A stretch of DNA of 43,119 nucleotides, taken from the UHGV virus genome UHGV-0017337; one strand, 5' to 3'. A program made the position numbers and the translations under genes. Source of the DNA: a virus. Numbering within the stretch: position 1 is the stretch's first letter; each line of letters starts with the position of its first letter. The notes beneath the pieces are model-generated. The model searched no databases and was not told where the DNA came from. It was given only the letters and a program-made list of their open reading frames with translations. Positions 40,068 through 40,325 of the stretch are shown piece by piece.

Positions 40068-40325
40068 ATGAATTTTGGTGAAGCAGTTACGATGATGAAC
40101 ATCGGTCATAAAGTTGCCCGTAATGGTTGGAACGGTAAAAGTATGTTTCTGTTTTTGATAGCAGGTGATTCCTGGGGTTTTGAATGTGATATTGAAGGTG
40201 TGGATGGTTTGGATACTTTACCATTTGTTTGTATGAAAACGGCAGATAATAAATTAGTGCCTTGGCTTGCAAGTCAGACTGATGTTTTAGCTGACGACTG
40301 GAAAATAGTAGGTGATGTGAAATGA
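40068..40325 (+). CDS. DUF2829-family protein (Tad2-like candidate anti-Thoeris signal sponge)
   Basis: ATG at 40068 after AAGGTGA. MNFGEAVTMMNIGHKVARNGWNGKSMFL...VPWLASQTDVLADDWKIV matches the DUF2829 N- and C-terminal signatures. Confidence 0.6.
   Translation: MNFGEAVTMMNIGHKVARNGWNGKSMFLFLIAGDSWGFECDIEGVDGLDTLPFVCMKTADNKLVPWLASQTDVLADDWKIVGDVK

Follow-up and report, generated by a model that had tools for sequence, protein, structure and literature searches.

The founding sponge of type I Thoeris signalling is the Tad2 protein of the Bacillus myophage SPO1 (Gp34.65; PDB entries 8SME, 8SMF, 8SMG and 8WJE), in which residues W25, N26, W73 and D79 contact glycocyclic ADP-ribose (gcADPR) (10.1101/2023.05.01.538930). 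HgmTad2, also called AcrIIA7 (8KBI-8KBM), is a dual sponge of gcADPR and cyclic dinucleotides (CDNs); it contacts gcADPR through W21, N22, G23, M76, A78, T82, V84, W87, L88, S90, T92 and D93, and this binding is lost in its W21A/N22A and S90A/T92A/D93A mutants (PMC10680739). A third described protein, ModTad2 or MoTad2 (8V3E, 9EIB), is a sponge of histidine-ADP-ribose (His-ADPR) and of cyclic UMP and CMP (cUMP/cCMP). When five diverse Tad2 homologs were assayed, four inhibited type I Thoeris (10.1101/2023.05.01.538930), and ~99% of Tad2 proteins are predicted to have a functional gcADPR site (PMC10680739). We have analyzed a gene of this family, hereafter tad2, which lies at positions 40068..40325 (+ strand) of the virus genome UHGV-0017337, a stretch of 43,119 nucleotides that is called the window throughout and that, judging from its sequence, is an E. 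coli Sashavirus/9NA-like siphophage. The results of our analysis indicate that its product, of 85 amino acids (aa), is probably a gcADPR sponge with an anti-type-I-Thoeris mechanism.

An initial annotation of the window had recognized DUF2829 signatures at both ends of the product and labelled it a candidate immune-signal sponge. A search with the Pfam profile PF11195 ('Thoeris anti-defense 2-like domain', formerly DUF2829) places the signatures far beyond chance, with E=1.4e-25 and 90.1 bits over the full length of the profile (1-73/73), the curated cut-off being 25 bits; PHROGs 872 and 1048 match the product at ~1e-25. In a database of 5.8 billion proteins, 2271 homologs are found at E<=1e-5, and PF11195 is present in all of the 120 listed. 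The only PDB sequences matched with phmmer are those of Tad2 proteins, namely SPO1 Tad2 (8sme, 8smf, 8smg; E=2.3e-17), HgmTad2/AcrIIA7 (8kbi; 1.8e-16), ModTad2 (2.8e-16) and, at ~1e-15, SptTad2 and one AcrIIA7 entry. An AlphaFold2 (AF2) model of the monomer, built from a 106-sequence alignment of the best-scoring homologs, has a pLDDT of 93.6 and a pTM of 0.81, with helices at residues 3-11 and 70-74 and strands at residues 15-18, 27-31, 53-57, 63-65 and 78-81. When this model was compared with known structures, as the initial annotation had proposed, only those of Tad2 proved significant: all 24 significant Foldseek matches in the PDB are Tad2 proteins (E from 1.6e-8 to 3.4e-7, query TM-scores or TMq of 0.72-0.82), the next match having E>1 and the highest TM-score being that to SptTad2 (0.82). 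Because the PF11195, PHROG, PDB sequence and fold matches are all with Tad2, membership of the family by both sequence and fold is virtually certain. What is known of the family is not changed by this new member, and standard tools (the 'Tad2-like' model of Pfam, AntiDefenseFinder) would flag the gene automatically.

Since the PF11195 domain alone does not fix the ligand, we compared the residues of the binding pocket, the positions of which were transferred from the published contacts via HMMER alignments. The predicted pocket of the tad2 product comprises W21, N22, G23, M56, T58, K62, V64, W66, L67, S69, Q70, T71 and D72, and thus includes the canonical residues W21, N22, G23, W66, L67, S69, T71 and D72. 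The SPO1 contacts W25, N26, W73 and D79 correspond to W21, N22, W66 and D72, while W21, N22, G23, M76, V84, W87, L88, S90, T92 and D93 of HgmTad2 are all identical in the tad2 product, the first three with the same numbering. Each of the 13 pocket positions is identical to that of SPO1 Tad2 or HgmTad2 (11/13 to HgmTad2 and 10/13 to SPO1 Tad2), as against 7/13 for the His-ADPR binder ModTad2, which does not block type I Thoeris; the latter count was made at pocket-equivalent positions. The C-terminal motif follows the same pattern, being W-L-A-S-Q-T-D in both the tad2 product and HgmTad2 but W-T-P-S-V-S-D in ModTad2. Eight of the pocket residues (W21, N22, G23, M56, T58, W66, Q70 and D72) are invariant across the 106 best-scoring homologs.

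The resemblance to SPO1 Tad2 extends to the fold (TMq 0.72-0.78), to 47% identity over 81 aligned residues (SPO1 Tad2 having 89 aa and the tad2 product 85), to the KTADNK strand and SQTD motif, which are identical, and to the presence of a short insertion in both proteins. The two proteins differ at M56, V64 and L67, which are I, H and V in SPO1 Tad2, and in the insertion itself: that of the tad2 product has 21-22 residues (residues 32-52, or 22 if the aligned segment 31-52 is counted) versus 24, is 3 residues shorter than that of SPO1 and unrelated to it in sequence, and has no obvious equivalent of the F44 stacking pair. They also come from different kinds of phage, a Gram-negative siphophage and a Bacillus myophage. 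The closest sequences (70-81% identity) are DUF2829 proteins from phages and prophages of enterobacteria, such as those of Klebsiella phages VLCpiS11a and VLCpiS13c, of Flyfo siphovirus Tbat1_6 and of prophages in K. pneumoniae and Morganella; they have the same short-insertion architecture and the same pocket but reside in different phage backbones and at different genomic positions; none of these enterobacterial sequences was found to have been experimentally tested.

The analogy with SPO1 Tad2 and HgmTad2 suggests a homotetramer for the tad2 product as well, in which two V-shaped dimers would be joined and two symmetric pockets would lie at the interfaces of non-dimeric protomers, each enclosing one molecule of 3'cADPR (1''-3' gcADPR), which is the signal of type I Thoeris, and probably also of 2'cADPR. 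In such a pocket W21 and W66 would stack on the ligand by van der Waals contacts and N22, G23 and D72 would contact its ribose hydroxyls and diphosphate, with S69 and T71 contacting the adenine side. With the signal sequestered, the ThsA NADase effector would stay inactive, and the phage would be able to multiply in Thoeris-carrying hosts, be they E. coli or other enterobacteria. We infer tetramer formation, ligand binding, the timing of expression and the anti-Thoeris phenotype of the protein, for which the pocket residues suggest 3'cADPR or 2'cADPR as the most likely ligand and type I Thoeris as the most likely target; our confidence is lower that the ligand is exclusively of the gcADPR type. 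As a Tad2/DUF2829 member with an intact gcADPR pocket, the product deserves its label of candidate immune-signal sponge. The associated proposal that it neutralizes a signalling-based defence can be refined: the predicted gcADPR-type pocket is consistent with action on type I Thoeris, and a CDN pocket of the HgmTad2 type is absent.

Several points weigh against a gcADPR sponge. No homolog more than 47% identical to the tad2 product could be identified as experimentally tested, in a comparison with the nearest tested relatives that covers sequences other than those of the 18 Tad2 proteins assayed in PMC12393519. Members of the family act on different defences, among them CBASS, Pycsar and types I, II and IV of Thoeris, and some do so via a second pocket (PMC12393519). 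ModTad2 retains the W, N, G, W, S and D residues of the pocket and yet spares type I Thoeris, so that partial conservation is insufficient and the argument for gcADPR rests on the remaining six positions. The insertion contains residues that are conserved within the tad2 clade (W36, F38, D41, G44, P52 and F53), and our model is that of a monomer, which cannot display a pocket formed between protomers.

The alternative that survives best retains the Tad2-fold sponge but gives it another product of TIR proteins or cyclases as the relevant ligand, instead of or besides 3'cADPR; the candidates are His-ADPR (type II Thoeris), N7-cADPR (type IV Thoeris), cUMP/cCMP (Pycsar) and the products of other TIR proteins of E. 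coli. Each of these specificities is known from some Tad2 homolog and several homologs act on multiple systems, as does Tad2_71, which blocks types I, II and IV of Thoeris, or MoTad2 (89 aa), which binds His-ADPR and, via a second pocket at the A-C interface, cUMP/cCMP (PMC12393519). In E. coli, activity is known for type II Thoeris and for nine more TIR systems (PMC11350192), the Tad2 of a Tatumella prophage, also enterobacterial, is a type II inhibitor, and the conserved residues in the insertion of the tad2 clade are its own. However, all 13 pocket positions agree with those of gcADPR binders, versus 7/13 for ModTad2, and K62, V64, L67, Q70 and T71 set the tad2 product apart precisely where ModTad2 diverges. 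ModTad2 has the same fold and size and shares GWNGK and the W...S..D pattern, but differs at six of the 13 positions: M56/L, K62/D, V64/A, L67/T, Q70/V and T71/S (tad2 product/ModTad2). With 39.5% identity to ModTad2 and this 7/13 pocket, the product falls outside the clade of His-ADPR binders (ModTad2, CcaTad2 and TmoTad2), and nothing positive supports either N7-cADPR or cUMP as its ligand. We therefore regard a different or additional ligand as a possibility to be held tentatively, and retain gcADPR sequestration as the preferred function of the protein.

The genomic setting of tad2 was examined next to that of related phages. A 25-kb structural and replication segment of the window aligns over 87-92% of its length, at ~95% identity, with Sashavirus BDX09P1, Escherichia phage KarinMuster_Bas82 and vB_EcoS_PJ16. 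The gene itself resides in a ~4.6-kb block of small + strand genes between terL and terS, the features of which are as follows.

34599-36587, - strand: terL
36693-41162, + strand: small-gene block, including rdgC and tad2
38994..39911, + strand: rdgC-like recombination-associated gene (PF04381, E=4.1e-113; phrog_724, E=1e-124)
39908..40066, + strand: orf52, acidic (isoelectric point, pI, 4.3), 52 aa, no family match
40056..40062, + strand: putative Shine-Dalgarno-like AAGGTGA for tad2, within the 3' end of orf52, proposed from spacing only
40068..40325, + strand: tad2, Tad2 family (DUF2829/PF11195), 85 aa, from Pfam, phmmer against the PDB, AF2 and the pocket comparison
40322..40657, + strand: orf111, all-helical, 111 aa, phrog_1229
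40666..40693, + strand: intrinsic terminator ACCCCGG-N6-CCGGGGT plus T-run, from terminator scan and RNA fold, closing the rdgC-orf52-tad2-orf111 run
40704..40732, + strand: sigma-70-like promoter TTGACA-17-TAAATT, 10/12 consensus positions, preceding the next pair of small genes
41249-41944, - strand: terS

Translation of 40068..40325 (+) gives exactly the 85-aa sequence reported by the initial annotation. An alternative in-frame GTG at 40059 would lengthen the product by 3 residues, but two features favour the ATG at 40068 as the start: the nearest homologs begin with MNFGEA, and the AAGGTGA site ends 6 nt upstream of it. The open reading frames of the run are tightly packed, with an ATGA overlap between rdgC and orf52, the tad2 ATG coming 1 nt after the orf52 stop, and another ATGA overlap between tad2 and orf111; tad2 is translationally coupled into the rdgC operon. 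The terminator hairpin (40666-40685) has 7 pairs, 6 of which are G-C, followed by TTTTTATTT, and a folding energy of -13.5 kcal/mol (z=-2.6 versus shuffled sequences); phage Sergei has an annotated terminator at the equivalent position. The operon anatomy first described for this region (rdgC, an acidic 52-aa frame, tad2, a 111-aa frame and a terminator) is accurate in view of the overlaps, the pI and the hairpin. The promoter-like site at 40704..40732 may mark the downstream boundary of the tad2 transcription unit, but is weak evidence on its own, since such sites are no more frequent in the region than in shuffled sequence (8 seen versus 8.1 expected in our promoter scan). A second DUF2829 copy was sought in the window and none was found.

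Module boundaries were mapped by blastn and tblastn against seven relatives, in which the slot after rdgC, the conserved upstream anchor, is occupied as follows.

Window: rdgC, orf52, tad2 and orf111 present
Bas82: rdgC and orf111 present; orf52 and tad2 absent
PDP46: rdgC and orf111 present; orf52 and tad2 absent
Sergei: rdgC and orf111 present; orf52 absent; tad2 absent (unrelated 85-aa gene)
PJ16: rdgC, orf52 and orf111 present; tad2 absent
Carvaje: rdgC (C-terminal part only), orf52 and orf111 (59% identical) present; tad2 absent
VLCpiS10a: rdgC, orf52 and tad2 (59.5% identical) present; orf111 absent
KP13-27: rdgC and orf52 present; tad2 and orf111 absent

The breakpoints in these relatives are sharp and located at gene borders. 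In Bas82 and PDP46 rdgC runs directly into orf111, homology with the window ending at 39915 and restarting at 40322, whereas in PJ16, which has the order rdgC-orf52-orf111, homology ends at 40034 and restarts at 40309, so that tad2 is the only extra gene of the window. Klebsiella phage VLCpiS10a is the sole relative with tad2 in the same slot. The G+C content at third codon positions (GC3) of tad2 is 0.29, versus 0.47-0.50 for orf52 and rdgC, and its exact allele was found in no collection searched: the best full-length match is 81% identical among the 5.8 billion proteins (one 60-aa fragment reaching 95%), 75% in GenBank phages and 71% in IMG/VR, while in complete E. coli genomes only prophage DUF2829 genes are hit, over part of their length and at 73-85% DNA identity. 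On account of the sharp breakpoints, the low GC3 and the absence of the exact allele from the collections, tad2 is regarded as a module of one gene that entered a mosaic hotspot by horizontal transfer. Elsewhere, a lambdoid prophage contig (L011, Logan SRR5240330) carries at 6001-6267 a Tad2 homolog 76% identical to the product, which is the first gene after N in the early-left operon and is next to cI and cro; a gene so placed is immediate-early, as counter-defence genes typically are, and the location fits a need for early expression. Of note, in Salmonella phage Sergei the slot of tad2 is occupied by gp06 (L002 3417-3674), the unrelated gene listed above, the product of which begins with MTRSDAERNH. 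The arrangement of terL and terS on the same strand, parted by the oppositely oriented small-gene block, is also that of Klebsiella phage Carvaje.

Type I Thoeris exists and is active in E. coli, where its activity is broader than that of type II, and the one study that tried obtained no point-mutation escapers from it (PMC11350192). Gene acquisition may therefore be the main escape route from this defence, and it is plausible that a coliphage would get past it by acquiring a gene for a sponge. If the prediction for tad2 is true, the phage is already equipped with an inhibitor of type I Thoeris within an enterobacterial host range, which would be of practical relevance for the choice or engineering of therapeutic coliphages. 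The near-isogenic phages Bas82, PJ16 and PDP46, which are 87-97% identical in aligned DNA and have no tad2 in the slot, constitute a natural tad2-minus set for comparison, and it was with a set of this sort that Tad2 was first discovered.

The neighbours of tad2 (39908..40066 and 40322..40657) had also been put forward as counter-defence genes, and the whole rdgC-orf52-tad2-orf111 run could then be a functional cassette in which orf52 and orf111 have anti-defence roles too. The genes are indeed translationally coupled in one transcription unit, the hotspot swaps small genes among phages of E. coli, Salmonella and Klebsiella as anti-defence islands do, and orf52 is small and acidic, but both neighbours assort independently of tad2. 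Found in 15 phage records, all of enterobacterial phages, orf52 is located just downstream of rdgC in the four that we inspected (VLCpiS10a, Carvaje, PJ16 and KP13-27), three of which (PJ16, Carvaje and KP13-27) have no tad2; in other terms, it is present in 4/7 relatives and accompanied by tad2 in only one of these. Similarly, orf111 follows rdgC regardless of tad2 and is present in 5/7 relatives, with 88-94% identity in Bas82, PDP46, Sergei and PJ16. Its homologs at ~40% identity are in HK022, 434 (ORF114), P22-like and Stx phages, and their occurrence in lambdoid phages such as HK022 and 434 would fit a cassette; judging from their coordinates, those of HK022 and 434 would lie in the non-essential early-left region. 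Yet in 41 tad2 loci of other phages the flanks never include rdgC, orf52 or orf111, and no relative in Pfam, NCBIfam or the PDB and no informative fold match was found for orf52 or orf111. Given their independent assortment, the 0/41 loci and the lack of any known family, the counter-defence label of the two neighbours is unsupported, and we consider the cassette unlikely; the adjacency of orf52 and orf111 to tad2 seems instead to reflect the mosaic hotspot. A 115-aa gene near the Tad2 homolog in the lambdoid prophage mentioned above was considered as a member of the orf111 family and rejected (E=2.9).

Klebsiella phages VLCpiS10a and Carvaje encode an orf52 protein with 100% identity to that of the window, and KP13-27 has the gene at 95% DNA identity, whereas rdgC has only ~78% DNA and ~82% protein identity with these phages. 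Because orf52 is near-identical while the adjoining rdgC is much more diverged, the comparison points to a recent exchange of the 159-bp orf52 module between phages of E. coli and Klebsiella, and orf52 constitutes a separate module of this hotspot, with no specific link to tad2. The argument for the neighbours reduces to the weaker point that the slot as a whole is a hotspot for small accessory genes. One could go further and suppose that the enterobacterial clade with a short insertion uses that insertion and its conserved residues to form a second pocket or to alter specificity, thereby acting as a broad sponge for several TIR signals (at least 12 TIR systems being active in E. coli); the slot between rdgC and terS in Sashavirus/9NA-like phages would then be a genuine anti-defence island, with its other small genes (orf52, orf111, Sergei gp06 and others) as inhibitors. 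We rate this extension as improbable, and keep to tad2 as an individually acquired gene for a predicted gcADPR sponge.

Less probable still is that the tad2 product acts as a dual inhibitor of Thoeris and CBASS, which would also sequester cGG, 3'3'-cGAMP and cUG in a pocket of the insertion domain, as the initial suggestion of CDN binding implied. HgmTad2, SptTad2 and SaTad2 do sequester CDNs, but their cavity needs an insertion of 35-41 residues between beta2 and beta5, and in HgmTad2 CDNs are contacted by R31, S47, F70 and N85, while SPO1 Tad2 binds no CDN (PMC10680739). SptTad2 is also the protein with the top TM-score to the tad2 model (0.82). In our alignment, nevertheless, the 35-41-residue insertion is not present in the tad2 product, the 21-22 residues of which fall below even the 24 of SPO1 Tad2; R31 is replaced by I31, N85 has no counterpart (P65 being at its place), and S47 and F70 belong to the missing part of the insertion. 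Since the 41-residue insertion domain of HgmTad2 and its CDN contacts are missing, CDN binding is not expected, and the short insertion together with the non-conserved R31 and N85 makes an anti-CBASS role via this type of pocket very unlikely, the proposal of a dual inhibitor being largely refuted by the sequence.

To our knowledge, E. coli and Salmonella carry type I and not type II-A CRISPR systems, which counts against the tad2 product being an AcrIIA7-like anti-CRISPR. We rejected this scarcely credible reading on published re-testing, for although Escherichia phage Louie has a homolog, 65% identical, that is annotated as 'anti-CRISPR protein' and AcrIIA7 was named in the original metagenomic screen (cited in PMC10680739 and 10.1101/2023.05.01.538930), HgmTad2/AcrIIA7 showed no inhibition of Cas9 in vitro or in vivo (PMC10680739) and AntiDefenseFinder folds AcrIIA7 into the Tad2 family.

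A few additional features of the window were observed. After the terminator and promoter-like site, two small genes of 62 aa (phrog_8009) and 68 aa (phrog_5305, pI 9.9) occupy 40768-41162 (+); both are 98% identical in PDP46 and Sergei, whereas Bas82 has the 68-aa gene at 98.5% identity but the 62-aa gene only as far as residue 42 (95%). The ORF-poor stretch beyond terS contains a 31-bp repeat (1.9 copies, 42343-42401), and a perfect 21-bp tandem repeat, GAAGCACCTGTAGCACGAGTG, is present in 3.3 copies at 43051-43119, running into the end of the window; the 'direct tandem repeat region' annotated in Sergei is at a non-equivalent position, upstream of rdgC within the small-gene block. Finally, a gene at 31913-32788 (+) encodes a 291-aa protein with zinc-ribbon/treble-clef motifs and a T5orf172/MUG113 (GIY-YIG-like) domain, matching phrog_681 'endonuclease' with E=1e-78, and looks like a gene of the homing-endonuclease type.
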